Shown here piece after piece: positions 1-13,143 of a DNA stretch of 13,143 bases; within the stretch, counting starts at the first letter, position 1, and every line of letters begins with the position of its first letter. The notes under the pieces were generated by a model that had not been told where the DNA came from, searched no databases, and saw only the letters and a program-made list of their open reading frames with translations. The DNA comes from a virus (lineage: Duplodnaviria; Heunggongvirae; Uroviricota; Caudoviricetes), in the IMG/VR virus record IMGVR_UViG_2917413769_000007, positions 1 to 13,143 of that record. One strand, 5' to 3'. Position numbers and translations under genes: made by a program.

Positions 1-126
1 CGCCATAAATACCGGGAAAGGGATACCTGCATCGGTAATGGTTTCCAGCATCATGTCCTGGTTTTCTGGCACAAATACTTTGTTAAAGCCCGAGGCGAAG
101 AAGAACACTCCGAGAGCCAATCGCAT
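1..126 (-). CDS. Membrane protein, DoxX-like (first 42 codons only; gene runs off the window start); probable host flank
   Basis: Manual minus-strand translation from ATG at 126..124 gives MRLALGVFFFASGFNKVFVPENQDMMLETITDAGIPFPVFMA, a hydrophobic N-terminus typical of small inner-membrane proteins. No convincing SD upstream; in-frame stop at 187..189 bounds the ORF. Confidence 0.3.
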   Translation of the reverse strand, partial: MRLALGVFFFASGFNKVFVPENQDMMLETITDAGIPFPVFMA

Positions 127-429
127 TATGGCTAGTGGGATAAAGCTGCGGGTGCCCGGCGTCTGAAAAAAAAGCCTGCAAACAGGTCATAAATATTCTC
201 CCTGATTATGGGGTTGATTGTCACTTACAGGGAGGTATTTTCCTCCCCGGACGCAGGTAAAGATCATATAGCTTCAGATTCGCTGCGTTATTGAACCATA
301 CTGAACGCAGCATACCAGTGCAAGCAAGGTATAGAAAATTTGCTGTGAGCATCTCGAAGTGAAGTTAAGGAGTTGTTTATAGGATAGGCACCTCCGGCAG
401 CCATTATCGAAACATAGACTACCGGAGAG

Positions 430-560
430 AGGAAAATGATAATGTGTATATATTTGCGTATTAAAAATCAAATAAACTCAATATATAGCGATATAACATA
501 TTGATTTAAAGTACTTTGTTGTATTTTGGATAATCTTTATCGTACCGGATATCATATGGC
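430..560. other. AT-rich segment, candidate prophage/host junction
   Basis: About 130 bp of strongly AT-biased sequence (tatatat, ttaaaaatcaaataaa) between the Tfa remnant and the membrane-protein gene; no ORF of coding character. Confidence 0.3.
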
Positions 561-830
561 CTACGCCTCCGACAAATCAGGCCAGCTAACATGTTCAGGG
601 TCGGTTGTAACATCAACCGACTTAACCTTATTCTTATAATTCAGCCAGGCCGACAGTTTTGCTCTGCCGGTGTCGCTGATTTCCCCCAGCATTAACTCTG
701 TGCGCCAGTCGAGCATAGCTGCATCTGCATGGACCAGCAGTTGCTGGCGAACCCGGTTGGCGGCAGCAATCGATGCGGCATTTTTCGCTTCAGTATTCGT
801 GACCCATTTCTCAACCAGTTGTTTATCCAC
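561..830 (-). pseudogene. Tail fiber assembly protein (Tfa) C-terminal domain, probable remnant
   Basis: 89-aa ORF with GTG start; ending LSAWLNYKNKVKSVDVTTDPEHVSWPDLSEA matches from memory the lambda/P2 Tfa C-terminus ([28 protein letters not shown]). Sits right after replication genes with no tail genes in between. Confidence 0.45.
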
Positions 831-1071
831 CAGATCCCCCTTCGTGCTGCTGCCGCCAATAATTCAAACGTTGTCTGAAAAACTCCCGATAACTCTCCGG
901 CGTCGCGTCAATGTGCTGAATAACAGTCTGGCGAGTAACTTTACGCTCATAGAGCTGACGAACGAGCGCAGCGGCGCGCATGTCGTAATGCTCTTTGAGT
1001 TGGCACTCTTGTGGCCATTTTGCACGATTGAGCGGGAGACCGGGCGGGAGGTAATCCGATTGCCCGGCCAT
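823..1071 (-). CDS. Hypothetical protein (82 aa); possibly the upstream part of a frameshifted tfa-like gene
   Basis: ORF with ATG at 1071..1069; contains YLPPGLPLN resembling the YIPPHTGLPAN motif of Tfa N-regions; ends in GGSGG at a C5/G5 homopolymer (836..840) where the next ORF begins in another frame. Confidence 0.35.
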   Translation of the reverse strand: MAGQSDYLPPGLPLNRAKWPQECQLKEHYDMRAAALVRQLYERKVTRQTVIQHIDATPESYREFFRQRLNYWRQQHEGGSGG

Positions 1072-1074
1072 GCC

Positions 1075-1755
1075 TTAAGTCCTCATGTTTTTCTCTGAGT
1101 GAACGTAGAAACGGGGATCAACGCTTTTCAGCGTGAAGTGTGTAACGGGCATGTCGTCATGCCGCTCGATGCCAACAAAGTTAGACATGCAAAGCGCAAA
1201 GACGCGTTTCTGAAGTTGATCCAGGCTTATTTTGATGTCCGGGTAATATTTTTTGATCGCAGACATGATCCCCTGATATGAGAGCGTTTTACCCTTCATA
1301 ATCGCCACAAGGTGTTCCGCCGGCAGTTCGCTGGATTTTTGGGTTAATTGGGATTCAGTGGGATTCTCAATGGGTTTTATGGTATCCAACAGCAGACAAC
1401 AGCGGCTGGTAATACCTACCCTATAGCCCGTTTTTTTGTCGTAATTCTCTTTGCTTCCGGAAGTCCATACAGTTGCTGTTTCGCGAAGTTTTACTGTCTT
1501 CTCTCCACCTGAATAAATAACGGTTCCCGTATGCGTCTTACTGAAACACCGTGGGTTGGTTTCAACAGGTTTTGATTTTTTAGTTTTTTTGGCCGCGCGA
1601 GCAGTTAATCCCGGAACAGGTACTGGGCGCGGGCAAGGCACATAAACTGAACGGCTGCGAGCCCTAGCACCTGCGTTCATCCGCCAGATGATTACGTTTG
1701 TCCAGTCACAGGCATCGTCATCTGTCGCTACTTTAGGATAAATTAAATCGGTCAT
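1075..1755 (-). CDS. Hypothetical protein (226 aa from ATG 1755)
   Basis: Long ORF after the helicase; ATG at 1755..1753 is preceded on the coding strand by GAGGAAAGACCA (complement of 1757..1767). The ORF-track start at 1779 is a GTG without that RBS. No family recognised. Confidence 0.5.
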   Translation of the reverse strand: MTDLIYPKVATDDDACDWTNVIIWRMNAGARARSRSVYVPCPRPVPVPGLTARAAKKTKKSKPVETNPRCFSKTHTGTVIYSGGEKTVKLRETATVWTSGSKENYDKKTGYRVGITSRCCLLLDTIKPIENPTESQLTQKSSELPAEHLVAIMKGKTLSYQGIMSAIKKYYPDIKISLDQLQKRVFALCMSNFVGIERHDDMPVTHFTLKSVDPRFYVHSEKNMRT

Positions 1756-1793
1756 TGGTCTTTCCTCATTGTATTTCACGCTGGTCAGGCGTT

Positions 1794-3182
1794 TTAGAAT
1801 GCGTCGGTGTTGTACTTCTCTGCATACTTCCGTTGCTGTTTTCTGGGTTTTGCTGCCTCCAGTTGAATACGGGTCTTCTCTTTGCCGACGAGCTGATCGA
1901 TTGGCAGAAAGTGACCGTTTTTAAATTCCTGATAAACCACAGTACCAGCAGCCGCAAACCGGCATTTGCCGAGAATGACCTCAGCCACACCAGCCGCCGG
2001 GCTTTCAGGGTTATAAACTTCATCGCGGTACAGAAACAGGATGCTGTCAGCGTCCTGCTCGATGGAACCAGAATCACGCAGGTCTGACATTACCGGGCGA
2101 CGCTGCGCCGCCGGACGCGTATCAACCGCGCGGGAAAGCTGGCTGAGCGCAAAGGTCGGTGTATGTAGCCGCATAGCCATCGTTTTGAGATTGCGGGAAA
2201 TGTGCGCTACGGCAAGGTCGTTACGCTCTGCTTTCGGTTTCTTAATCAGGCCGAGATAGTCGACCATGATCATTGCCAGATGCGGATGGCGTCGCTTGTG
2301 TGTCTCCGCGATAGCGCGGATCTGTTCGACTGTGAGATCGGTCGCATCGACAATCCAGATGTCCCTGTCTGTAAGTTCTCCAATGGCTGCGGTCAATCTC
2401 GCCCAGTCCTCGTCGTACATGTCCTGAGGATTACGCAGGCGAGAAACGGACAAGTTTCCGGCACCAGCTAGCGAACGTTCAACAATCTGAGCCGCCGCCA
2501 TTTCCATGCTGAAAATCAACGCGCCGCCGCCCTTTGCCGTCACACCTTCAACGACGGTAAGCGCAAACTCTGTTTTACCCATGCCTGGGCGACCAGCCAC
2601 GACAATAAGATCCTGCGGGTTAATACTGCCTGTTGCGTTATCAAGATCCGCAATACCAGTCAGCAAATTGCGCGTGGATTCGTCACCGTCCATACGTTTC
2701 TGTACTGTGTCCATGTAAGCGGGCAAAAGCTCGTTGATGTGTACCGGCTGAACGTCGCCACTATCAGCAGTCATGTCCAGCAGCTGCGCCACTGCATTTT
2801 CGACCACTTGATCTCGTTGCTCCTGGTTGGCAGCTTTGCGGATGCCGTCAGCGCCATCCTGCAGAAGTTTCGCCAGCGCGCGGCTGCGCCAGGCCTTAAC
2901 CATCTTCCCGGCATACCCTTTCAGGTTCGGCACCGTTGCGGGGATACGGGATATTTCAGACAGGTCAGCCAGACTTGAACCGCCCAGCGCTTCGCTGATG
3001 AATAACATGTCGATCATGCCGTTAGTCAGCGCCTGTTTTTTTATCTCGCTGAATGTACGGCGATGAAAACCAATGCTGAATGATTCTTCTGGCGTGGAGG
3101 CGATCACGTCAAATGCGTCAGGAGAAGCACCGCCATTCAACAGGCCAGCCAGCACACACGCTTCCAGTTCCTGAGGATTCAT
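1794..3182 (-). CDS. Replicative DNA helicase, DnaB family (phage-encoded)
   Basis: 462-aa ORF; Walker A GRPGMGKT followed by other DnaB-like C-terminal-domain sequence (IVVAGRPGMGKTEFAL, SMEM, MIMVDYLGLI, SQLSR); start ATG overlaps the upstream gene stop as ATGA (3182..3179). Confidence 0.9.
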   Translation of the reverse strand: MNPQELEACVLAGLLNGGASPDAFDVIASTPEESFSIGFHRRTFSEIKKQALTNGMIDMLFISEALGGSSLADLSEISRIPATVPNLKGYAGKMVKAWRSRALAKLLQDGADGIRKAANQEQRDQVVENAVAQLLDMTADSGDVQPVHINELLPAYMDTVQKRMDGDESTRNLLTGIADLDNATGSINPQDLIVVAGRPGMGKTEFALTVVEGVTAKGGGALIFSMEMAAAQIVERSLAGAGNLSVSRLRNPQDMYDEDWARLTAAIGELTDRDIWIVDATDLTVEQIRAIAETHKRRHPHLAMIMVDYLGLIKKPKAERNDLAVAHISRNLKTMAMRLHTPTFALSQLSRAVDTRPAAQRRPVMSDLRDSGSIEQDADSILFLYRDEVYNPESPAAGVAEVILGKCRFAAAGTVVYQEFKNGHFLPIDQLVGKEKTRIQLEAAKPRKQQRKYAEKYNTDAF

Positions 3183-4432
3183 AATGCCTCTTCCCTGGTT
3201 TTACGCAGTGTTTCGGGTTTCATGAGATAATCAAAACTGGCACGCCAGCCGTCGTGATGCTCGCCACCGAAATAAAATTCAGGAGCGGTGTTGCGAAATT
3301 TCTCAAGGTATCCCAGAAACGCGCCTGTAGTTTTATTGATCATGTGGGCTGCGAGGCGTGTAATCATCTGGCGGCGATCGGCGTCCAGGGTTGCAGCAGG
3401 TAGCACATCAGCAAAAATTTCGTTGTAAGCATCGACTACCGCAACCGGATCAATACTGGCTTCGGTGGTGGCCCATGCCTCAGCGTCAGCCAGATAACCA
3501 TCGAAGCGGCATACTCGACAGATATTTGCCGGTTTAGGGAGGCTGTCACCCCGGCGGCGCCAGGTAGCCAGTACCCAACGAATAACTAACTGAACATCAT
3601 CCAGCGTATAGCCGTCTCGGGTAGTCGTAGGGGTCATAAGCGCCAGGAACGGCTTCATGTCACGGCAGCGAGTACCGGTTTGCACATTGTAAAAATCTAG
3701 TGCTTTTTTAGCATCTGCAAGGATTTGTTCGCGGGAAATATTAGCAACCGAGGATGTTTCTGGATGCGCACCAATCACAGTGATCCCGTCAAATTCGTAG
3801 CGTTCTGTAATTACGCCATCTCTGACCAGAATAAAGCCATCACTAAGCTGTTTTAATTTTGTTATGGATTTATCCCGCACGTTGATTCGATCAATTTCAA
3901 TACCGCATTGTTCACCATCGCTTCCAGTTACTAGTAAATCAACGCGGCCTCTGCGACCGTTACCACGATCAGCTACCGGGTATTCGCGCTGGCAGTCAAA
4001 GCCTGCACCAACAATCGCAGACTCAACAGCATCGTGAAGCTCACCTGCTTTTTCAAAATCAAATTTACCTTCGAGAAGGGAAATCAGTTGCTCACGCAAT
4101 ACATGTCCGCCAACTCTCCCAACGGGAGATTTAGAGGGATATATATTCTCTGTAGTAATCTCTGTATGAATATTTGCTGGTTTTCCACTTACTTGTCTGG
4201 TGGTTTTCCGCACTCCAGTATGTGTTTTTTCCGCATTCTTGTTTGCGGCTATAAGTACCTGATATAAAAACGTCATTATCAACCTTGTAGAAAAGTCGAG
4301 CAGGAACACCTTTTCGTTTTTCCAGCAGTACACCAATTGAGCGAAGTTTTTTACGCGCCCCTTCCTGCTCATAGCGAGAAAGGCCTGTTTCTTCTTCCCA
4401 TTCTTCTTGGGTTTTATATACCCACCCGTCAT
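3179..4432 (-). CDS. Replication initiator (O-like), downstream frame: central nuclease-fold-like segment plus conserved phage replication C-terminal domain
   Basis: C-terminal 170 aa (GYTLDDVQLVIRWVLATWRRRGD...EFYFGGEHHDGWRASFDYL) resemble the conserved C-terminal domain of phage replication initiators, by recollection. The first ~50 codons of the tracked ORF are out-of-frame translation of the N-terminal domain; likely continuation of 4131..4556 across a frameshift. Confidence 0.65.
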   Translation of the reverse strand: MTGGYIKPKKNGKKKQAFLAMSRKGRVKNFAQLVYCWKNEKVFLLDFSTRLIMTFLYQVLIAANKNAEKTHTGVRKTTRQVSGKPANIHTEITTENIYPSKSPVGRVGGHVLREQLISLLEGKFDFEKAGELHDAVESAIVGAGFDCQREYPVADRGNGRRGRVDLLVTGSDGEQCGIEIDRINVRDKSITKLKQLSDGFILVRDGVITERYEFDGITVIGAHPETSSVANISREQILADAKKALDFYNVQTGTRCRDMKPFLALMTPTTTRDGYTLDDVQLVIRWVLATWRRRGDSLPKPANICRVCRFDGYLADAEAWATTEASIDPVAVVDAYNEIFADVLPAATLDADRRQMITRLAAHMINKTTGAFLGYLEKFRNTAPEFYFGGEHHDGWRASFDYLMKPETLRKTREEAL

Positions 4433-4556
4433 CGTCGGATCGGTTAGTCCAGTAGGTCATTTGTGAAAGAAAAAGCGAGGCAGTAACACCAATATTCAGG
4501 CGAATAAAACTACGCTGGAAGGCGATCGGCCTGTCGAGTAGTGGGAGTATATTCAT
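4131..4556 (-). CDS. Replication initiator (O-like), N-terminal replisome-organizer/DNA-binding domain (upstream frame)
   Basis: Motif MTYWTNRSDDDGWVYKTQEEWEEETGLSRYEQEGARKKLRSIGVLLEKRKGVPARLFYKVD, typical of phage replisome-organizer N-domains by recollection; ATG at 4556..4554 sits 2 nt after the upstream gene's stop; sequence degrades after FYKVD. Confidence 0.65.
   Translation of the reverse strand: MNILPLLDRPIAFQRSFIRLNIGVTASLFLSQMTYWTNRSDDDGWVYKTQEEWEEETGLSRYEQEGARKKLRSIGVLLEKRKGVPARLFYKVDNDVFISGTYSRKQECGKNTYWSAENHQTSKWKTSKYSYRDYYREYISL
4147..4235. repeat. Candidate replication-origin iterons inside the O-like gene
   Basis: Direct repeats GGTTTTCCACT (4179..4189), GGTTTTCCGCAC (4202..4213), TTTTTCCGCAT (4226..4236) at about 23-bp spacing, plus TCTCTGTA twice (4147..4154, 4159..4166), next to an AT-rich stretch (4255..4280). 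Confidence 0.4.
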
Positions 4557-4558
4557 GA

Positions 4559-4783
4559 TCAAATCCCCAGAGTTTCGGCGATTTGACGACATGCCGCCTG
4601 ATATTCCTCAGATGACAATTCCATTTCACGGAGTTCTTCTTTCAGTTTTTCATACTGCGCCCAGATAGATAGCGCAGCTGCGCGACGGCCTTCGAAAATA
4701 TCTTCGATATCATCCAGGGTGGCTGGCACCCCGTTTAGTCGAAATCCGTTCCGCCATGTAATGCGGTCGATTGAAGTCAGCAT
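4559..4783 (-). CDS. Hypothetical small protein (74 aa) between the YdaT-like and O-like genes
   Basis: ATG at 4783..4781 preceded by GAGGAAAGACCAAT (complement of 4787..4797); product MLTSIDRITWRNGFRLNGVPATLDDIEDIF...; no family recognised. Confidence 0.6.
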   Translation of the reverse strand: MLTSIDRITWRNGFRLNGVPATLDDIEDIFEGRRAAALSIWAQYEKLKEELREMELSSEEYQAACRQIAETLGI

Positions 4784-4805
4784 ATTGGTCTTTCCTCGAT
4801 ACAAG

Positions 4806-5252
4806 TTAAACGCTGGTCAGGCGCTGTGTTTCCTGTATGGCTTGTAATGCCTGCGCTATACGCTGGGGTCGATCCCTTGCTTCAAGCAACAGAGCAATAA
4901 TCGCCGCGGCAAAATCACGAATCGCAATGCAAATTAACTGCTGAGTGGTCATTCCCAGCTGTGCATATCGTTCCGCAGGCAACGCAGCTTCCATCGCCAT
5001 GGCCAGCGCTTTCGTTTTGATTCTTGCCGCTTTCGTCTCACCACGTAGCCAGCGAAAAATCTGCTGCCGGTTGTTGTTGATAGCCCGCCAGTCAGCATTA
5101 CCTTTCGAATCCTCCATCGGGTGAAGTTTTACGTAGCTGGTATTGCCACCCATTCGAAACCACATGCGAGTGATCTCAATAGCAACATGTTCCTGGCCAC
5201 GCTCAGCAGCCCAGTTGAAGATTTCTCTTTTCAGTTCGTCGAGGTTTTCCAC
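4806..5252 (-). CDS. ydaT: YdaT-like protein (Rac-prophage YdaT family)
   Basis: 148-aa ORF with GTG start and AGGAG 10 nt upstream; segment WRAINNNRQQIFRWLRGETKAARIKTKAL matches my recollection of YdaT; located directly downstream of the Cro-like gene as in Rac. Confidence 0.7.
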   Translation of the reverse strand: MENLDELKREIFNWAAERGQEHVAIEITRMWFRMGGNTSYVKLHPMEDSKGNADWRAINNNRQQIFRWLRGETKAARIKTKALAMAMEAALPAERYAQLGMTTQQLICIAIRDFAAAIIALLLEARDRPQRIAQALQAIQETQRLTSV

Positions 5253-5275
5253 TTCGTCGCGTCTCCTGTCGCTGA

Positions 5276-5298
5276 AAACCTGATTAAGCGTAATCAGA
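5276..5298. repeat. 23-bp element AAACCTGATTAAGCGTAATCAGA with internal palindrome, copy 1
   Basis: Identical to 10629..10651. Contains CTGATTA-AGCG-TAATCAG. Lies between the Cro-like and YdaT-like genes; on the transcribed (minus) strand the hairpin is followed by GUUUUC. Confidence 0.5.
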
Positions 5299-5316
5299 TT
5301 TCAAATACGCTCTTTG

Positions 5317-5517
5317 TTAAGCTGCAGTTGTGTTGTTCGGTTCCAGATAAAATTCGGGGTCATATTTCAAAGCCCCATCAGTAACACGATCCAACCTTGC
5401 AGCTCGGCGCTCAGGTATCACATTTCCCCAGCGAGATACTGCTGGAAGTGAAACTCCTGCGGCTCGAGCCAGCTTTGTGGCGCTCCCAAAGAACGCTAAA
5501 GCATCGTTTTTAAACAT
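5317..5517 (-). CDS. dicC: Cro-like HTH regulator, DicC/YdaS family
   Basis: 66 aa, MFKNDALAFFGSATKLARAAGVSLPAVSRWGNVIPERRAARLDRVTDGALKYDP, matches DicC/YdaS pattern from memory; divergent from the repressor gene; SD GGAG 7 nt upstream of ATG. Confidence 0.8.
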   Translation of the reverse strand: MFKNDALAFFGSATKLARAAGVSLPAVSRWGNVIPERRAARLDRVTDGALKYDPEFYLEPNNTTAA

Positions 5518-5598
5518 TGCCGATCTCCATTTTGTTAACTTTAAGAAACAAAATTACGAGTTAAAGAAAATTAAGTCAAGTAAATTTATATTAACTAC
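5518..5598. promoter_or_regulatory. Divergent promoter/operator region of the immunity switch
   Basis: 81-bp AT-rich intergenic region between divergent repressor and cro-like genes; minus-strand -35 TTGACT (complement of 5574..5579); operator-like 18-mer GTTAACTTTAAGAAACAA at 5534..5551 with flanking inverted repeat TTTGTT/AACAAA. Confidence 0.5.
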
Positions 5599-6009
5599 AT
5601 GAACAAAATCAGCCCTGGCGAGCGCATTAAAAAGCGACGTAAAGAACTCAACCTAACTCAGCGTGAAGTCGCAAAACTCGCGCAGGTATCGCACGTCACA
5701 ATCTCTAAATGGGAAAACGATGACAACGAGCCTCAGGGCAGGAACTTGTTCCAGTTGAGTCAGGCCCTGCAATGTTCACCCACCTGGATTTTATACGGGG
5801 ACGAAGACAAACAGCCCGAGCCTCCAGCAGTATCTGAAGAAGATAAGATCACATTAGATGAGCTTGAAGAGCAGCTACTCGAGCTTTTCAGGGCACTACC
5901 CAGTTCAGAAAAAGAACGCCATTTAACTGAGCTTCGCGGAAAAGTGGACGATTTTAATCGTCTGTTTTACGAATTGCTCCAAGCAAGAAAAACCTCCAAG
6001 AAAAAATAA
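5599..6009 (+). CDS. dicA: HTH (XRE-family) repressor, DicA-like
   Basis: 136 aa; HTH segment LTQREVAKLAQVSHVTISKWEN; LQCSPTWILYGDEDKQP and LLELFRALPSSEKE match my recollection of E. coli DicA; no peptidase S24 domain. Confidence 0.9.
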   Translation: MNKISPGERIKKRRKELNLTQREVAKLAQVSHVTISKWENDDNEPQGRNLFQLSQALQCSPTWILYGDEDKQPEPPAVSEEDKITLDELEEQLLELFRALPSSEKERHLTELRGKVDDFNRLFYELLQARKTSKKK

Positions 6010-6045
6010 ATCCATTAAAATCAAATAAATGGATGAGTGTCGCCC

Positions 6046-6110
6046 TTTTATTTAACTTTTATAAACAAATTTATGTTGACTGATAATTTAACCTTTATTA
6101 AATTAACTTC
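6046..6110 (+). promoter_or_regulatory. Candidate early-left promoter with second operator copy
   Basis: TTTAACTTTTATAAACAA (6051..6068) matches the 5534..5551 operator-like 18-mer at 15/18 positions; followed by TTGACT (6076..6081), a 17-nt spacer and TAAATT (6099..6104). Confidence 0.4.
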
Positions 6111-6217
6111 CATCAACGACGCACTAACCACGCGGCAGTTGTTCAGAAAAACGTTCCGCCGCCGGGCGTAAAGCGGATGAGGGAATCGGCGCTAACAACA
6201 AAGCAATGGGGTGAGTG

Positions 6218-6535
6218 ATGGAATTCAGCAAGCTGCCACACGAAGTGCAGGTAATTGCCGCCAAATGCCTGGCAGACGAAATCAATACAGTTTCAGGTTT
6301 TGCAGGCAATGAGGTTAACCGCGGTCCCGCTAAAGAGCAGGCCAAACAGGTTCGTGACGCATTCATTGCTCTTTTTTCAGAGCGCGAGATGGAAGGTGAG
6401 AAAAAAGCGGCAGCAGAGAGAATTGCTGCCACCATCGCAGGCATGCAGCAACTGATTGGTAGCGATGAGGTGCTAAAAACCCAAGTTAAACATCTGATTT
6501 CAGCGACTGAAGATTTGCTTGATAAGTGCCTGTAA
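6218..6535 (+). CDS. Hypothetical protein (105 aa), first gene after the repressor
   Basis: Coding-like composition (MEFSKLPHEVQVIAAKCLADEIN...); GGGGTGAG upstream of ATG; the opposite-strand ORF 6124..6576 is low complexity and judged non-coding. Confidence 0.55.
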   Translation: MEFSKLPHEVQVIAAKCLADEINTVSGFAGNEVNRGPAKEQAKQVRDAFIALFSEREMEGEKKAAAERIAATIAGMQQLIGSDEVLKTQVKHLISATEDLLDKCL

Positions 6536-6736
6536 TTGGTAAGTGACCGATACACCATCTCCGTTAGATGGTCCATCTACATCAGGAAATCGAAGGGTGA
6601 CATTGTTTTTAAGGGCTTTTAGTTGTTCTGAAGTTAACAGTTTAAGGGCTTCATCAAGCATTACGTTTGTTGCTTCCAGAGTGGCTTCTGAGACTTTTGG
6701 CTTAATTTCCTCAAGCATTTTAGAAAGTTGACTCAT
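6500..6736 (-). CDS. Hypothetical protein (78 aa), convergent with 6218..6535
   Basis: Internal ATG at 6736..6734 of the tracked ORF is preceded by AAGG 7 nt upstream; product MSQLSKMLEEIKPKVSEATLEATNVMLDEALKLL...; candidate -10 TATACT (complement of 6769..6774). Confidence 0.4.
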   Translation of the reverse strand: MSQLSKMLEEIKPKVSEATLEATNVMLDEALKLLTSEQLKALKNNVTLRFPDVDGPSNGDGVSVTYQLQALIKQIFSR

Positions 6737-6885
6737 GTTTTTACCTTGCTGGTTATGTGAGAACGCCCAGTATACCACCGAGCCTGAAGTGGCTAAAAGA
6801 CAGGCAACGAATTCGCGGGTCGCCGCCAGTACGATGACATGCGGGAAAGACCGCAATGAATCCAAAATTGCTGTGTGTAGTCTTT

Positions 6886-6912
6886 GCCCAGCCACCACGG
6901 TGGGCACTTTTT
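6886..6912 (+). terminator. Candidate intrinsic terminator (plus strand)
   Basis: GC-rich hairpin GCCCA-N10-TGGGC (or CCAC-CACG-GTGG) followed by ACTTTTTTTC. Confidence 0.45.
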
Positions 6913-7111
6913 TTCACACAGTTACGATTTTACCGTTGTGACTGAGTCTCCAGACGGAGAGGCCAAACCCACAATGTGACACCAGGGAAAGACCGAAGGA
7001 AGTACAACGCCTGACCAGCGTAAACCGAGCATGACCAGCTCTGGCACCGGGGAAGACCGGAAGAGGAAAGACCTGATGGCCTCACCAGCCTGACTGCCGG
7101 GAAAGACCGGC

Positions 7112-7148
7112 ACCCTTTAGATGGCAAAAGGCCCGCACAAGGCGGGCC
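7112..7148 (+). promoter_or_regulatory. nut-like element: boxA-like CCCTTTAG plus boxB-like hairpin
   Basis: CCCTTTA (7113..7119) resembles boxA CGCTCTTTA; 11 nt later a perfect 7-bp GC stem GGCCCGC/GCGGGCC with 5-nt loop ACAAG (7130..7148), not followed by a U tract. Confidence 0.25.
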
Positions 7149-7276
7149 AGTTACCCCGGGCGGCGACCAAACCACCCGGATTGTTCCGCAGGGGACCAAC
7201 CCTGCGGAGAGGAAAGACCAATGCAGGACAGAGCCAACACTGATCGGCTCTGAGTATATATCACTAAGGAGCCGCT

Positions 7277-7600
7277 ATGGAAGCGCTAACCATCCCCGTA
7301 AAGCTGTACATCCATTACAACGCCAACACTTTCTCTCAGGAAAAAATCATTGTCGCCACCTGTGACATGTCACGTAGTTTTCCAGATCAATATGTCTTGC
7401 TGGAAACGCGCAATATATCCATCGATGTAAACCAACCAGAGCCATTCGACATTATTGCTCTGCAGGTCGACCAGTTGCGTGACCAGAAAGAGAAAATCGC
7501 AACTTTGGCGCAAAGTCAGATAGCCCAGGTTGACGACAAAATACAGCAACTGCTCTGTATTGATCACTCACCTGTTCAGGAAAGCGACATCCCATTTTGA
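7277..7600 (+). CDS. Hypothetical protein (107 aa) immediately upstream of the annealing-protein gene
   Basis: Strong SD TAAGGAG 6 nt upstream of ATG; coding-like acidic protein; no family recognised. Confidence 0.65.
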   Translation: MEALTIPVKLYIHYNANTFSQEKIIVATCDMSRSFPDQYVLLETRNISIDVNQPEPFDIIALQVDQLRDQKEKIATLAQSQIAQVDDKIQQLLCIDHSPVQESDIPF

Positions 7601-7695
7601 TCAACCGGCGCCAGACCAGCGCCAGTAACCAAAGAGGAAAGACCAAGTGACAATTTATAACTGTCTGTTCGAGCCGAAGAAATCTGCTATCAAGG

Positions 7696-9918
7696 ATGGT
7701 GCTGTTGCATTGGCAATCAGCATCGAAGCGCCAAATAAAAAAAGTCGCTGAAAGTATCATCATCGGCAAACTCTGGGAGCATTATCCTGCAAATGGCGAC
7801 AACTATTTTAAACCTAAAATCTGGGAAGATTCAGAGGGCCAGCCTCGTCCGGAAGTCGGAAAATTTGATGAGCAATTTGCTCAGGCGAACACATTAGACG
7901 GGGAAAAGTGGATCGCCAACGATTCAGACACCAGTACTTTAAATTTGCCAGCCAACGACGAGATAATCGATCTGACGAAGCTGCCAGCTCGTGAACGCTT
8001 CATTGCCATTCTTATGTTCAGTGATTCCCCCATTGACGGTGTACTGTACTCTCAGGTGCTGGATTATCTTGATAATCTGGAAAATAGCCACGAGCCGTTT
8101 GATGATGACGATCGGCTGAATTCTAATATTCTTCATGCCCTGGAAAATAACGAACCCGTTCGTCACATGCATGTTGAGGGGGTAAACAATCTGATTCAGG
8201 CCATCTTCGCTAAATTTGAAGGCCAGGCACCGGGTAAGGCAGCAATTTCACAGTTCATTAAACGCTGGATGGAAAATCCTCGTAAGCGTGAAGAAATGCG
8301 GCCGGAAAATACCGCATTGAATAATGATGGTGTCAACAATGACAGTAACAAAGTAGCACCACAGCGCGGATATAAGCATTCTTATGCCACACTGGATCAG
8401 GAAATTGCCCTCGCCCTTCTCCCGATTAATTTCACAGAAACAGTATCAGTTCGTGCGCTACGATCTGCTGAACACATCATTGAAGAAGACCGAGAAGATT
8501 TCAAACGCTGGTCAGCGGCACTACGTACGACAGAGCAGATCCTGAAGTATGACCGCCCCAGTGTTTTTGGCGTTATTCAGAATGCACCTGCTAAAGATAC
8601 ATACCATTTCCCTGAGTCACTGCGGCACCATATTGATTCCTGGCTGGCTGAAAATGGTCAGTTCGAGTGTGCTGGTACTGATGCGGAGAGAACCAGCAAA
8701 CTGCTTGCGGCAGAGCGCGGCGAGTACGTCGAAGGTATCAGCGACCCTAACGATCCTAAATGGGTTAAAACAGATTCCCAACCTCAGGTATCAAACCTCG
8801 GCAATGGAATGTTCTCTGTTGATAATCTTCTGCCTGAAACCGCCTCAAAGGAAGGTGAAAAACAGGAAGTGACCGAACAAGGAACTGTTACAGAAGACCA
8901 GGCAACACAGGCCCGAGAAAAGTTGAACAGCATGGGTTACGGCGTTTATGCAACGAACCATGACGAAACTGACCAGCAGGAAGAAAAGCTGAGCGATAAA
9001 GTAAAAACTCTCGTTCAGGATGCGGATCAACTTGTCGAGCGCGTTAAACGTGAAGAGCAGCTCCCGCAGGCATCTGAACTGGTTCAGAGCATCAACGAAA
9101 TGCAGTCTACTGAACGCGATAACCTGGAATTGTGGAAAGAGGTGTTCAAAACAGATGAGCGTTTTACTACTGCGTTCTCTGTGAATGGCGGCGGAACCTC
9201 AATCAATGGCACCTACATGACCATGATCGCTACCCGCGAATTTGGTCCGAAAGGTATCGGCTGGGGTGTGGATATTCTTGAAGAACGCTTTGACGATGGC
9301 GCGCCAATTACTCGCGCAGTCAAAGGGACTGACGGTAACAATACATGGGAGTTTATTCCCGACGGTGTAGGCGGCATCCTGACAGAGAAACACCACGTTA
9401 TCAAAATCAGACTTTGGTACATCCGGAATGGTGCGCGCGGTGAAGAGATTTCATTCGGGTGTACCCCGTATATTTACGGCAGCAAATACGGCCCTATTTG
9501 CGATGGTGAAGCGACAAAAAAATCACTGACTGACGCAACCAAAAAAGCGCTGTCTGCACTTGGTTTCTGCGCTGATATTTTCATGGGCCTGTACGATAAC
9601 CCGGAGTATCGCCAGAAAAATAAAGCAGAATTCGCGCTCAAAAACGCCAGCGAAAACGCCGAGGATGCCGCCCGCGTACGTCAGGAACTGGACGACAAAC
9701 TGACCCGAGTCGCTAACACCATTGCATCTGCTGTATCAGAGCACGAGATCAACAAGGTCTATTCTTCGATTGCTCGCGAAGCGGAGGTGCATCGCAAGGA
9801 TGCAGAGGCGAAAGGTGACACACAGCATGCCCGTTACTTAGGTGGGCGTCTGCGTCGCCTGACAACTATCAAAGATGGACGTATCGCCGAACTGAAAAAA
9901 GTACAGGAGAAAGCATAA
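7696..9918 (+). CDS. Large protein with C-terminal Erf/Rad52-like single-strand annealing domain and ~470-aa unknown N-terminal region
   Basis: 740-codon ORF; residues ~480-640 (EATKKSLTDATKKALSALGFCADIFMGLYD) match the Erf (GATSSYARKYCLNGLFGIDD) and Rad52 helix motifs from memory; tracked ATG 7696 has no usable SD; see frameshift finding. Confidence 0.8.
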   Translation: MVLLHWQSASKRQIKKVAESIIIGKLWEHYPANGDNYFKPKIWEDSEGQPRPEVGKFDEQFAQANTLDGEKWIANDSDTSTLNLPANDEIIDLTKLPARERFIAILMFSDSPIDGVLYSQVLDYLDNLENSHEPFDDDDRLNSNILHALENNEPVRHMHVEGVNNLIQAIFAKFEGQAPGKAAISQFIKRWMENPRKREEMRPENTALNNDGVNNDSNKVAPQRGYKHSYATLDQEIALALLPINFTETVSVRALRSAEHIIEEDREDFKRWSAALRTTEQILKYDRPSVFGVIQNAPAKDTYHFPESLRHHIDSWLAENGQFECAGTDAERTSKLLAAERGEYVEGISDPNDPKWVKTDSQPQVSNLGNGMFSVDNLLPETASKEGEKQEVTEQGTVTEDQATQAREKLNSMGYGVYATNHDETDQQEEKLSDKVKTLVQDADQLVERVKREEQLPQASELVQSINEMQSTERDNLELWKEVFKTDERFTTAFSVNGGGTSINGTYMTMIATREFGPKGIGWGVDILEERFDDGAPITRAVKGTDGNNTWEFIPDGVGGILTEKHHVIKIRLWYIRNGARGEEISFGCTPYIYGSKYGPICDGEATKKSLTDATKKALSALGFCADIFMGLYDNPEYRQKNKAEFALKNASENAEDAARVRQELDDKLTRVANTIASAVSEHEINKVYSSIAREAEVHRKDAEAKGDTQHARYLGGRLRRLTTIKDGRIAELKKVQEKA

Positions 9919-10472
9919 TGACTACTGCAATCGCGTTAGCTGCCGACTATACCAACCTGCTGCAATTGCTGGAAAGCTCAGATGAACTGACTCCGGAAAT
10001 GATCGCCGATACTCTGGAAGGCATTGAAGGAGAACTGGCGGATAAGCTGGATGCCATCATGGTATTAGCCCGCAATAATCTCGGACATGCCAAAACCTGT
10101 GATGAGGAAATGAAGCGCCTGGCGGAGCGCAAAAAGTCTTTCGAAAATAAAGATAAAACGCTCAGGAAATATATTCTGTCGTGCCTTATGGCCGCGAATC
10201 TGGATAAGCTCAAGACACCTAAAAACACTTTCACTGCCCGTAAAGGCAGCATCAGCGTTGTGATCGATAACGAAAAGCTATTGCCTGATGATCTGGTAAC
10301 TGTTCAGACGATTATCGCCCCGGACAAAAAAGCCATCAAAGAGGCAATCGAGGCTGCGGAAGCTGCCGCAGCGCAAATCACCGCTGATGGCGGTGAAGTA
10401 CCTGCCGAACTGTTAAACCCGGTACCGGGCGCCCATCTTGAGATCGGCGAACGTTCATTGCAGGTGCGCTGA
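9918..10472 (+). CDS. Siphovirus Gp157-like protein (companion of Erf/Sak-type recombinases)
   Basis: 184 aa; start ATG overlaps the upstream stop (TAATG); KTPKNTFTARKGSISVVIDNEKLLPDDL matches my recollection of Gp157 proteins; a Mu-Gam-like assignment is not excluded. Confidence 0.6.
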   Translation: MTTAIALAADYTNLLQLLESSDELTPEMIADTLEGIEGELADKLDAIMVLARNNLGHAKTCDEEMKRLAERKKSFENKDKTLRKYILSCLMAANLDKLKTPKNTFTARKGSISVVIDNEKLLPDDLVTVQTIIAPDKKAIKEAIEAAEAAAAQITADGGEVPAELLNPVPGAHLEIGERSLQVR

Positions 10473-10473
10473 T

Positions 10474-10656
10474 ATGCTGAAACTATCTCTCAAACGTGGC
10501 GATGCGGTACATGTTGTTCTCCCTGACGGTAGTAACGGAATTATTGAAGCCCGCAGCCGTTGTGAACTGGGTATGCGTCTGCCGAAAAACGTGAAGGTTA
10601 CGCGTGAGAAAGGCGCATTCCTCCCTGCAAACCTGATTAAGCGTAATCAGAAATAA
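10474..10656 (+). CDS. Hypothetical small protein (60 aa)
   Basis: ATG at 10474, 2 nt after the upstream stop; product MLKLSLKRGDAVHVVLPDGSNGIIEARSRCELGMRLPKNVKVTREKGAFLPANLIKRNQK; 3' end is encoded by repeat copy 2. Confidence 0.45.
   Translation: MLKLSLKRGDAVHVVLPDGSNGIIEARSRCELGMRLPKNVKVTREKGAFLPANLIKRNQK
10629..10651. repeat. 23-bp element AAACCTGATTAAGCGTAATCAGA, copy 2
   Basis: Identical to 5276..5298, same orientation on the plus strand; overlaps the stop region of 10474..10656. Confidence 0.5.
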
Positions 10657-10705
10657 AACCCCGCTACCGCTAGCATTGCGGCCTCACTATTCACAGGAGG
10701 TCGCA

Positions 10706-10903
10706 ATGCTGCGATGGCAACCCGGAGCTACTCTGCTCACAGATTTCGATATAAAGATTGGCCGGTTATCGGCAAGCGTACGAAAGAAGACACTGACCCA
10801 GTCCGACATCGAACGCGCCTGCAGTGATGCTGACGACGCTGTGTACCGGATGATGAGGAAAGACCAACATGACCAGAGAAAACGATCTGCTAACAGACGC
10901 TGA
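10706..10903 (+). CDS. Hypothetical small protein (65 aa)
   Basis: Internal ATG at 10706 preceded by AGGAGG with 5-nt spacing; product MLRWQPGATLLTDFDIKIGRLSASVRKKTLTQSDIERACSD...; 3' end overlaps the xis-like start by 35 nt. Confidence 0.5.
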   Translation: MLRWQPGATLLTDFDIKIGRLSASVRKKTLTQSDIERACSDADDAVYRMMRKDQHDQRKRSANRR

Positions 10904-11093
10904 ACTGATTGAGTTTACCGGCTATCAGAAACCATCCAAACAACGGGAAATACTGGACCGTGGCGGCGTGTCGTACATTCCCGACCGGGAAGGACGCCCG
11001 ATGGTTACCTGGACACATATCAACGCTGTACTGAACGGACAGATCACCGTGCAGACCAGTACAGAAGAGAAACCCGATTTTGGAGCTATTTAA
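10869..11093 (+). CDS. Excisionase-like protein (DUF4224-type)
   Basis: 74 aa directly upstream of and abutting the integrase gene; LLTDAELIEFTGYQKPSKQREILDRGGVSYIPDREGRPMV fits the int-adjacent small-protein pattern from memory; preceded by GAGGAAAGACCAAC. Confidence 0.65.
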   Translation: MTRENDLLTDAELIEFTGYQKPSKQREILDRGGVSYIPDREGRPMVTWTHINAVLNGQITVQTSTEEKPDFGAI

Positions 11094-12113
11094 ATGGGGC
11101 GCAGAAGAAAGGATCCGGGTGATAACAGGTTACCCCCGCGCGTATCAAAAACCAGAACTCGTTACTACTACAAACCCACCTCGCGGGAGACCGTGACGCT
11201 TGGACCAATCACCTTCACTATGTCGGCGTTATGGAAACGGTACGAAGAAGAGCGACGCAATTATTCAGATGTGATGACGTTCGAAAAGCTCTGGAAGATG
11301 TTTCTTAAAAGCGCCTACTACACCGAGCTTGCAATACGAACCCAGCGGGATTACCTGCAACATCAGAAAAAACTACTTGTCGTATTCGGTAAAGTTAAAG
11401 CTGATTTAATCAAACCGGAAGACGTTCGTCAGTTTATGGATCGTCGTGGCCTACAAAGTAAAAATCAGGCTAACCAGGAAATGAGCAGTATGTCGCGTGT
11501 TTACCGCTGGGGATACGAACGCGGTTACGTTAAGGGAAACCCGTGCGCCGGCGTCAGTAAATTCTCTCTCAAGGCCCGCGAGCAATACATCACTGACGAA
11601 GACTACCTGGCGATTTATAAACATGCAGATCACGTCGTCAGGGCAGCAATGGAAATATCGTACCTGTGCGCAGCCCGGCAAGCTGATGTACTCGCTCTGC
11701 GCTGGATGCAGATATCTGACAAGGGGATTTTTATCCAGCAGGGTAAGACAGGGAAAAAGCAAATTAAGGTGTGGACGCCCCGCCTTCGGCAGGCGCTGGA
11801 AACGGCACAGACAGAATGCCCGAGGCTCTCACCTGATTCACTGGTTATCTATAACAACGATCGTGCTCAGTTCATCCGCAAGACGTTCAATAATCGCTGG
11901 CTAAAGGCCGTACGTGCCGCACAAAGCGAACTGGGCCGGCAACTGGATTACACGTTTCACGATATAAAGGCAAAAGCCATTTCAGATTTTGAGGGGAGTA
12001 GCAGGGATAAGCAGATATTTAGCGGTCACAAAACAGAAAGTCAGGTGCTTATCTACGACAGAAAGGTGCAAATCAGTCCGACGCTGGATCGTCCTTTGAT
12101 AAATGGCCAGTAG
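11094..12113 (+). CDS. int: Tyrosine recombinase / phage integrase
   Basis: 339 aa; alignable by eye to lambda Int catalytic region: AARQADVLALRW (Arg-I), QQGKTGKK (Lys), TFHDIKAKAISDF (His box), FSGHKTESQVLIYDRK (His-II and Tyr). Confidence 0.9.
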   Translation: MGRRRKDPGDNRLPPRVSKTRTRYYYKPTSRETVTLGPITFTMSALWKRYEEERRNYSDVMTFEKLWKMFLKSAYYTELAIRTQRDYLQHQKKLLVVFGKVKADLIKPEDVRQFMDRRGLQSKNQANQEMSSMSRVYRWGYERGYVKGNPCAGVSKFSLKAREQYITDEDYLAIYKHADHVVRAAMEISYLCAARQADVLALRWMQISDKGIFIQQGKTGKKQIKVWTPRLRQALETAQTECPRLSPDSLVIYNNDRAQFIRKTFNNRWLKAVRAAQSELGRQLDYTFHDIKAKAISDFEGSSRDKQIFSGHKTESQVLIYDRKVQISPTLDRPLINGQ

Positions 12114-12114
12114 T

Positions 12115-12144
12115 TTGACAAATCCGCATCAACGGGGCTATATT
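12115..12144 (+). promoter_or_regulatory. Candidate sigma70 promoter immediately after int, reading toward antA
   Basis: TTGACA (12115..12120), 18-nt spacer, TATATT (12139..12144). Confidence 0.5.
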
Positions 12145-12174
12145 CCGCTTCATGGTGCTGAACACACCTTGCAA

Positions 12175-12212
12175 AGCGGAAACCGCACCTGTCAGTCATG
12201 CGGATTTTTTAT
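12175..12212 (+). terminator. Candidate attenuator/terminator in the antA leader
   Basis: GCGG-AAA-CCGC hairpin (12175..12185) shares its CCGC with an alternative CCGCA-N11-TGCGG stem (12182..12202) followed by ATTTTTTAT; stems are short. Confidence 0.3.
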
Positions 12213-12357
12213 GTCCATTTTTCAGATATGGTCGGGTAGCGCGTATACCGAAAAACAGCCGAAAGGTTAAGGATACGGGCCGACTTTGCACGGTGTTCAA
12301 GTACCTGACCGCCCTGCTGAACACAGGGCTATCTGAACAAATGCAAAGGACATAAAA

Positions 12358-13143
12358 ATGACCAATCAACTCATCCCCGTTTTCAACGGCACGATATCCA
12401 ACGACCCCCACCTGCTCTGCAATGCCCGCGATCTGCACGCCTTCCTCGAAGTAGGCAAGCGCTTCGCTACTTGGATTACTGACCGACTAAACGAGTATCA
12501 ATTCGTTGAAAATCAGGACTACATAGCTATTTCCCAAAAACGGGAAATAGGTCATGGGCGTGGCCGCAAGGACTTCTACATCACCCTGGACACCGCCAAG
12601 GAACTGGCGATGGTTGAGCGCAACGAAAAAGGCCGCCAGATCCGCCGATACTTCATTGAGTGCGAGAAGCAACTCAGTCAGAACAAAGAATCAATTGTCC
12701 TGACCACTCCGATGCATCGAACGCCACTACGTGACGCCGTTCACCTTCTTGTCGGTATGCGCTGCATGGCATTTCAGGAAGCCTATCAGCTTATCCACCA
12801 GCGCTTTGGCGTCGGTAGTATTGAACAACTCACCCGCGCACAAGTGATGGATGCCATAGAGTACATTCATTGTCTGTTAGCAGACGGGGCAACAGGGAAA
12901 CTCCCCTCCGGCGAAAGCAGAATATTAATCACCCTTCGAAATGGAGAAATAATCAAGACAAGGGCCATTGGAGCTGATGAGCATGTCGCAACGCTGGAGG
13001 CTTTTATCGAACTGGCGAGAAGTGCGCATTACATTGTCATCCACAAGGATGGTGCAGCGCCATTGATGAAGGCATTAACAGGAGGGAGATCTGAGGAAGG
13101 CAAAAGACACAAACTGAATAATTATTCAGTTTGCGATTTCTGA
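12358..13143 (+). CDS. antA: Phage antirepressor, AntA-type N-terminal domain with C-terminal extension
   Basis: 261 aa; ARDLHAFLEVGKRFATWITDRLNEYQFVENQDYIAI and DFYITLDTAKELAMVERNEKGRQIRRYFIECEKQL match the AntA domain from memory; SD AAGGA 9 nt upstream; stop at the last three bases of the window. Confidence 0.8.
   Translation: MTNQLIPVFNGTISNDPHLLCNARDLHAFLEVGKRFATWITDRLNEYQFVENQDYIAISQKREIGHGRGRKDFYITLDTAKELAMVERNEKGRQIRRYFIECEKQLSQNKESIVLTTPMHRTPLRDAVHLLVGMRCMAFQEAYQLIHQRFGVGSIEQLTRAQVMDAIEYIHCLLADGATGKLPSGESRILITLRNGEIIKTRAIGADEHVATLEAFIELARSAHYIVIHKDGAAPLMKALTGGRSEEGKRHKLNNYSVCDF

Follow-up and report, generated by a model that had tools for sequence, protein, structure and literature searches.

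What is the function of a cluster of GC-rich hairpins that lies in the leader of the early-left (recombination) operon of a lambdoid prophage? The question is raised by positions 7112–7207 of a 13,143-nucleotide (nt) stretch of Caudoviricetes DNA (IMG/VR record IMGVR_UViG_2917413769_000007, positions 1 to 13,143; the window hereafter), which contains the immunity and early region of such a prophage. A first-pass annotation, made from the letters alone, had read the hairpins on the plus strand, as a nut-type or put-like antitermination RNA, a processing site, or a small RNA. Here, they are assigned to the body of a predicted small RNA gene of ~123 nt on the minus strand (~7245→7123; ends estimated, the gene being called from the covariance model score, the fold, and the homologues). 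The structure, strand, fold, and conservation of this gene can be read from homologous loci, and we infer that its product would act through base pairing; taken as a whole, we regard this explanation as fairly probable.

The hairpins and the terminator noted upstream of them are real. Read directly in the window are the hairpin GGCCCGC-ACAAG-GCGGGCC (7130–7148), a CCGGG/CCCGG stem (7156–7160 and 7175–7179, extending to 8 pairs), the hairpin CCGCAGGG-GACCAA-CCCTGCGG (7186–7207, to which 7185/7208 add a ninth pair), and the terminator candidate at 6886–6912, a GC-rich hairpin followed by T7. The accompanying statement that no U tract follows the three hairpins holds on the plus strand only: on the minus strand, 7130–7148 is followed by UUUU, and in relatives by U5–7.

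The strand of the selected fold was addressed with related sequences, 51 gathered through the protein of an adjacent 107-amino-acid (aa) open reading frame (ORF) and a further 80 by means of a DNA pattern. The distinct homologues number 49; they come from Enterobacterales prophages and all occupy the same genomic position. A covariance model (R1), which gives the window element 119.4 bits, was used to realign 22 distinct sequences and then an independent set of 39 distinct ones. In the two internal helices (stem-loops SL2 and SL3, described below), 42 alignment cells read as G·U pairs in the minus-strand RNA and would be A·C mismatches in a plus-strand RNA, vs. 1 cell the other way; these cells are spread over about ten pair positions and are not independent events. 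All 21 distinct core sequences are more stable as minus-strand RNA (mean −50.2 vs. −41.0 kcal/mol). In the window, the minus strand of a 126-nt stretch folds to −71.6 kcal/mol (z −6.5; equalled by none of 200 shuffles) and the plus strand to −56 kcal/mol (z −5.2). Covariation is scored at 0.442, vs. 0.228 for shuffled alignments (reached by 0 of 500 shuffles), and at 0.450 vs. 0.211 in the independent set; slid registers score far lower. Compensatory base-pair conservation among homologues, on which the first-pass annotation had staked its reading, is therefore present, and the stems covary strongly. Because the G·U cells stand at 42:1 and 21 of 21 folds are better there, the minus-strand RNA is taken to be the selected form. 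The earlier interpretation of the hairpins is thus partly supported: the small RNA option stands, and placement on the plus strand does not, since the fold is selected on the minus strand. The asymmetry between G·U and A·C decides the strand in such cases, and strongly covarying "leader hairpins" can be a gene of the opposite strand.

The predicted gene is bounded by an orphan promoter/terminator pair, and it is therefore classed as a putative small RNA gene. The −10 box TATACT (minus strand, 7258→7253) lies ~125 nt upstream of the terminator hairpin and just upstream of the 107-aa ORF, where it separates the predicted RNA start from the Shine–Dalgarno sequence of that ORF, and reads TATACT or TATAAT in every homologue; an alternative register, TG-A-TATATA, lies at 7255–7263. 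Several subfamilies have a perfect TATAAT, sometimes preceded by TGn, and some have the extended form TGATATAAT. The 7-nt spacer between the −10 box and the first hairpin is constant in length and variable in sequence (CAGAGCC, TGTTGTA, and TAACGTA), an arrangement that fits a putative promoter with a fixed start. There is no minus-strand gene to the right that could supply a longer transcript. The predicted RNA is transcribed away from the 107-aa ORF and is antisense to the leader of the early-left operon. A 30-codon minus-strand frame was rejected as coding, being broken by 2-nt indels in the spacer.

From 5′ to 3′, the RNA comprises the hairpin SL1, the single-stranded linker UUUCCUC, two hairpins with UUGGUC loops (SL2 and SL3), and a terminator (SL4). 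SL1 (7216–7245, minus strand) has the 3′ arm CAUUGGUC, is predicted in all 10 distinct 5′ variants, and ends in UUGGUC; its arms covary between subfamilies (GAUCAGUG/CAUUGGUC, GAUCAGCG/CGUUGGUC, and, in Serratia, GCCGAUGUGC/GCAUGUUGGU). The linker (7209–7215, minus strand) is the complement of the Shine–Dalgarno sequence GAGGAAA, and exactly 7 nt are unpaired in 10 of 10 variants; the Serratia form is UUUCCUU, and a diverged subfamily has UUUCCUA. Alignment A2 shows no variation in the block GGUCUUUCCUC. SL2 (7185–7208, minus strand), which is the hairpin read above at 7186–7207, has nine pairs closing a UUGGUC loop; it is paired in 100% of cells in both the 22- and 39-sequence sets, eight of its nine pairs are changed on both sides, and its 14 G·U cells occur on the minus strand only. 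SL3 (7156–7179, minus strand), which corresponds to the CCGGG/CCCGG stem, has eight pairs and the loop UUUGGUCG; 91–94% of cells are paired, five to six pairs are changed on both sides, and G·U cells number 28 on the minus strand vs. 1 on the plus strand. SL4 (7123–7148, minus strand) is the predicted intrinsic terminator, with its stem at 7130–7148 and a U-tract complementary to 7126–7129. A GC-rich stem followed by U4–7 is found on the minus strand in every homologue, a terminator scan calls the homologous site in related locus L002, and the stem shows compensatory change (GGCCCGC/GCGGGCC vs. AGCCCAC/GUGGGCU). In the model alignment, the terminator helix is paired in 66–69% of cells, owing to mis-registered classes of 4-nt and 5-nt loops; in single-sequence folds, it is intact in all homologues.

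Several variants of this architecture were observed. A GATC (Dam) site at 7242–7245 lies at the predicted start of the RNA, within the 5′ arm of SL1, and is kept in nearly all variants (CCGATCAG, CCGATCGG, and AGATCAG), not in Serratia L007; related phages encode DNA methyltransferases. In L025 (2809–2983, minus strand), the SL4 hairpin is partly duplicated in tandem. Serratia-type variants (L007, 2834–2961, minus strand; L079, L119, L136, and L207) carry an extra stem-loop between SL3 and the terminator, which has no UUGGUC loop (it reads GAUGUAAAA or GAUGUAAAC) and gives an RNA body of ~128 nt.

The closest relative appears to be IsrB of the Salmonella Gifsy prophages. IsrB of Gifsy-1/2 is an RNA of 88/94 nt, detected by northern blot, encoded between STM1010 and recE (sbcA) and antisense to both (PMC2330248); starvation induces it, lysogens express it, and it has been listed among ProQ-associated RNAs (PMC2330248; 10.1101/787010; PMC5391140). 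In Gifsy-2, the mapped 5′ end of IsrB follows its −10 box (TAGAAT) by 7 nt, and the promoter and the recE start overlap (PMC2330248). The window element is likewise prophage-encoded, within the early-left operon, beside a RecE-type exonuclease gene, and antisense to flanking genes, with a promoter that overlaps the start of the downstream gene and a predicted 5′ end 7 nt after the −10 box. Both are orphan promoter/terminator pairs antisense to early-left genes by the exonuclease module, and both have a hairpin with a UUUGGUCG-type loop (the 8-mer is common to the two) just before an intrinsic terminator. However, IsrB (also found in phage HK225) has a single UGGU-loop hairpin and lacks the UUGGUCUUUCCUC block, and it abuts recE, not a homologue of the 107-aa gene. 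The Rfam covariance search proposed in the first-pass annotation does return isrB (RF01386) on the minus strand (7126–7200), in a permissive scan, at 18.5 bits (E 0.84), which is below the threshold of 35; that threshold is reached by 0 of 11 related loci, compared with 99.3 bits for Gifsy-2 and 38.2 for HK225. On these comparisons, the predicted RNA is IsrB-like and not a member of the family, because RF01386 misses the family and R1 scores IsrB only 18.3 bits.

A possible role for the RNA is suggested by its complementarity to a motif shared among early genes. The RNA carries UUGGUCUUUCCUC, the exact complement of the motif GAGGAAAGACCAAUG, and GAGGAAAGACC(A)ATG forms the ribosome-binding site and start of four unrelated early genes in both divergent operons. 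With one mismatch allowed, GGAAAGACC occurs 11 times in the window vs. 2.5 expected. These repeats were rejected as CI operators or origin iterons, as they are absent from the cI–cro gap and, in each of the two divergent operons, lie on the sense strand. All homologues keep the cis copy of the motif (GAGGAAAGACCAATG, 7209–7223, on the plus, leader strand), including those with no ORF after it and the many in which the following ATG is ACG; a 10-codon ORF after 7221 was accordingly rejected as coding. The predicted trans targets, with the energies of their duplexes in the complete genome of phage BUCT708, are the starts of the RecE-like exonuclease gene (GTG start; 7634–7649, plus strand; −31.0 kcal/mol, the best outside the cis site), the excisionase-like DUF4224 gene (10855–10871, plus strand; −25.8 kcal/mol), a 74-aa gene after ydaT (4781–4797, minus strand; −26.8 kcal/mol), and a 226-aa gene after dnaB (1753–1767, minus strand; −25.9 kcal/mol). 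A 20-nt seed was scanned against both strands of BUCT708, as RNAduplex with the full-length RNA gave meaningless long-loop duplexes. The cis site ranks first, followed by the four initiation regions and another copy of the motif in the leader (−26 to −31 kcal/mol), vs. a median of −12.5 kcal/mol for BUCT708 initiation regions. Eight of the 10 motif copies in BUCT708 lie in the early region on the sense strand, four of these being real gene starts, and none of the 10 serves a late gene. At these genes, the motif is kept in every locus examined, Serratia included, though the flanks differ. We infer translational repression of the four early genes through pairing with the Shine–Dalgarno/start region, in addition to pairing with the leader in cis, because of the exact complement, the seed ranking, the conservation of the motif, and the retention of the cis copy without an ORF. 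In cis, the predicted RNA would pair with the overlapping transcript of the early-left promoter (pL); in trans, UUGGUCUUUCCUC would pair with GAGGAAAGACCAAUG at the exonuclease, excisionase, 74-aa, and 226-aa gene starts and block the initiation of translation, most plausibly in the lysogen.

Several observations weigh against a small RNA gene that acts in this manner. The −35 element is weak, and a strict sigma-70 promoter scan makes no call at the −10 box. In the diverged subfamily, both loops have changed to GUGGUU with gene-start GACCAA unchanged, and the C-to-A change in the linker is matched at the 74-aa gene only. Gifsy-2 gene starts have no such motif, such that IsrB lacks comparable targets in its own phage, and the complement of the Gifsy-2 IsrB loop is not at gene starts. 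Every relative found with the 74-aa gene also carries the small RNA, and all relatives found have both the RNA and the motif, so that there is no presence/absence contrast; any antisense RNA would automatically pair with the cis copy; and the shared motif could owe its conservation to a protein- or ribosome-related constraint, the overlap with the RNA being accidental. A rival account is a purely cis-acting antisense RNA that pairs only with the overlapped pL leader, leading, for example, to RNase III cleavage or transcriptional interference, the trans match being a by-product of a motif conserved for other reasons. We regard it as possible, though less probable. It is favored by IsrB, which has the same position and orientation yet no motif-bearing targets in Gifsy-2, by the change of loops at unchanged gene starts in one subfamily, and by the promoter of the RNA, which faces pL as would suit interference. 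However, neither the 13-nt block nor its single-stranded display varies, including in loci whose cis copy starts no ORF, and genome-wide the best trans sites are the four initiation regions together with one copy of the motif in the leader.

A plus-strand leader RNA for terminator read-through, either nut-like with an N-type protein or put-like without one, is scarcely credible. Its appeal lies in the position of the pL candidate upstream of a strong terminator with early genes beyond (the arrangement also seen downstream of pL in lambda nut and HK022 put, with terminators ahead), and in the good fold of the plus strand (z −5.2). The premise of a terminator before the early genes holds insofar as the best pL candidate (6076–6104) is upstream of 6886–6912; this terminator is the 3′ hairpin of an RprA-like RNA described below. 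The wobble pairs (42 to 1) and fold energies favor the antisense strand, where 7130–7148 is itself the predicted terminator, such that a boxB hairpin functional in the sense (pL) transcript is not supported. The boxA-like word CCCTTTAG can be read at 7113–7120 but is poorly conserved, with the variants AACTTTAG, ACCTTCAG, and ACTTTTGG, and is deleted in L008–L013 and L027; no conserved boxA (CGCTCTTTA-like) precedes boxB among relatives. The covariance model finds the element once in the window, with no counterpart on the side of the rightward promoter pR, unlike the left/right pair of lambda nut and HK022 put, and Rfam gives no match to an antitermination family. Nor does the element behave as put, which would be a two-stem sense RNA after pL and pR: it occurs once, on the antisense strand, and the pL candidate is ~1 kb away. 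As the first-pass annotation had stated, no N-like gene was found in the window, there being no antiterminator domain in the ten ORFs scanned, which do not include every small ORF. An Arg-rich 40-aa ORF (7121–7243) was rejected as coding, as its ATG is ACG in relatives. Readings in which no functional RNA is made are also very unlikely, whether the hairpins act as DNA (palindromes bound by a protein, or sites of recombination) or are only a cluster of terminators that shields the operon from convergent transcription. Palindromes do pair on both strands, and the region lies beside operator-like repeats and many direct repeats, but DNA palindromes give no G·U/A·C asymmetry, pairing and loop sequence persist through free variation of the stems, and a conserved −10 box stands at a fixed distance from the first hairpin.

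Just upstream of the small RNA gene predicted here, the leader carries hairpins that appear specific to the plus strand. Type A is represented by GCCGG-GAAAGA-CCGGC (7096–7111, plus strand), with further copies at 6841–6854 and 7047–7060; across loci, the GAAAGA loop is found on at least 12 different stems, and wobble pairs favor the plus strand. Type B comprises two plus-strand hairpins with the loops CUGACCA (7007–7021) and AUGACCA (7027–7041) and a third copy at 7076–7088; the YUGACCA loop is found on at least six different 4-bp stems, with G·U pairs on the plus strand. The boxB loops of lambda are GAAAA and GAAGA, which the GAAAGA loops recall; unlike in lambda nut, the GAAAGA hairpins occur in three or more copies per leader. 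The GAAAGA and YUGACCA loops are the two halves of the motif and are complementary to the linker and loops of the RNA; therefore, the leader, which shows both halves in hairpin loops, could, speculatively, be a further target or decoy. An extension of this proposal, which we consider doubtful, is an RNA-level switch layered on CI/Cro. In the lysogen, the RNA would silence the exonuclease, the excisionase, and two genes of unknown function via the "address" shared by their ribosome-binding sites; on induction, the pL leader would supply three to six decoy copies (single-stranded, and in GAAAGA and UGACCA loops) that titrate the RNA and release the regulon, and pL transcription would simultaneously occlude the RNA's own promoter.

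Small RNAs that silence an operon in the lysogen have precedents in c4 of phages P1/P7 and CI of satellite phage P4, which are small immunity RNAs with short patches complementary to repeated leader sites. These are processed from the same strand as their targets, and operate by translation-coupled or direct termination of transcription. The element would resemble them as a small phage RNA with short patches complementary to repeated leader sites of an operon silent in the lysogen; no relation in sequence or structure was found, and the Rfam scan gave no such match.

The RprA-like small RNA (6787–6915, plus strand) matches RF00034 at 50.6 bits (E 2.2e-5), which falls short of the gathering score of 70, a level that none of the related loci attained either. 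Its 3′ hairpin is the terminator at 6886–6912. The 3′ half (AAUUGCUGUGUGUAGUCUUUGCCC) is identical to the family consensus, and the 3′ 50 nt, terminator hairpin included, are nearly identical to that of RprA, whereas the 5′ part differs, carrying a GGGAAAGACC hairpin, and the element is prophage-borne. In this 5′ part, the hairpin reads GCGG-GAAAGA-CCGC, and in E. coli relatives ~350 nt are inserted between the two parts.

The surrounding genes are those of a lambdoid immunity and early region, with a P22_Cro-type gene (5317–5517, minus strand) and an HTH_3 repressor gene (5599–6009, plus strand). The rightward operon is on the minus strand (ydaT, replication genes, and dnaB); in order on the plus strand are a 106-aa gene, a long non-coding stretch, the 107-aa ORF, the RecE-like exonuclease (its protein matching phrog_2489, exonuclease), Gp157, the DUF4224 excisionase, and the integrase. 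The same gene order is found in phage BUCT708 and in prophages of E. coli, Citrobacter, Raoultella, and Serratia. Directly following the repressor gene, a candidate left operator and pL (6044–6104, plus strand) comprises operator-like repeats and the promoter-like TTGACT-17-TAAATT (6076–6104) called by a promoter scan; 6044–6073 and 6067–6081 are paralogous to 5527–5556 and 5582–5596 in the cI–cro gap. Beside these repeats, which resemble the right operator, TTGACT-17-TAAATT is the best pL candidate on sequence grounds. The 107-aa ORF (7277–7600, plus strand) encodes a protein with no Pfam match and a PHROGs match limited to phrog_2479, a family of unknown function; its structure model is confident, with a predicted local distance difference test score (pLDDT) of 88.7, and gave no informative match against the Protein Data Bank (PDB) and viral folds.

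Further observations concern the flanks. Within 7647–7760 (plus strand), the exonuclease gene starts at GTG 7647, directly 3′ of the motif, and is frameshifted near codon 32 relative to L008 and L002, with the long ORF resuming at 7696 in another frame; slippage, a sequencing error, or decay to a pseudogene may account for this. Immediately downstream of the integrase gene, 12230–12318 (plus strand) matches sRNA-Xcc1 (RF02221) at 68.3 bits, against a gathering score of 53. At 6215–6739, two ORFs overlap on opposite strands: a 106-aa plus-strand ORF that matches phrog_9419 (E 1e-10), and a 79-aa minus-strand ORF with no PHROG match; a minus-strand terminator-like site is present at 6433→6406, and tblastn of the two ORFs gave no match. 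A segment of ~65–75 nt within 6733–6807 has 83–90% identity to unannotated DNA in Rac-SA53, SfII, phiES15, and several Klebsiella phages; the Rac-SA53 copy is immediately upstream of a small gene that lies on the minus strand between the repressor and kilR.

By pattern scan, at least 119 viral contigs carry the small RNA family, with hosts that include Citrobacter, Salmonella, Klebsiella, Raoultella, Enterobacter, Pluralibacter, E. coli, and Serratia. A widespread predicted small RNA family that is captured by no Rfam model at its curated threshold is new; the RNA predicted here is a prophage antisense RNA of the IsrB type, distinguished by its match, at several sites, to a ribosome-binding motif that genes share. 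Prophage RNAs of this type have been on record since 2008 with no function assigned, and this family supplies a concrete hypothesis, testable by mutation: that such an RNA may repress excision, recombination, and replication-associated genes through a motif shared by their ribosome-binding sites.
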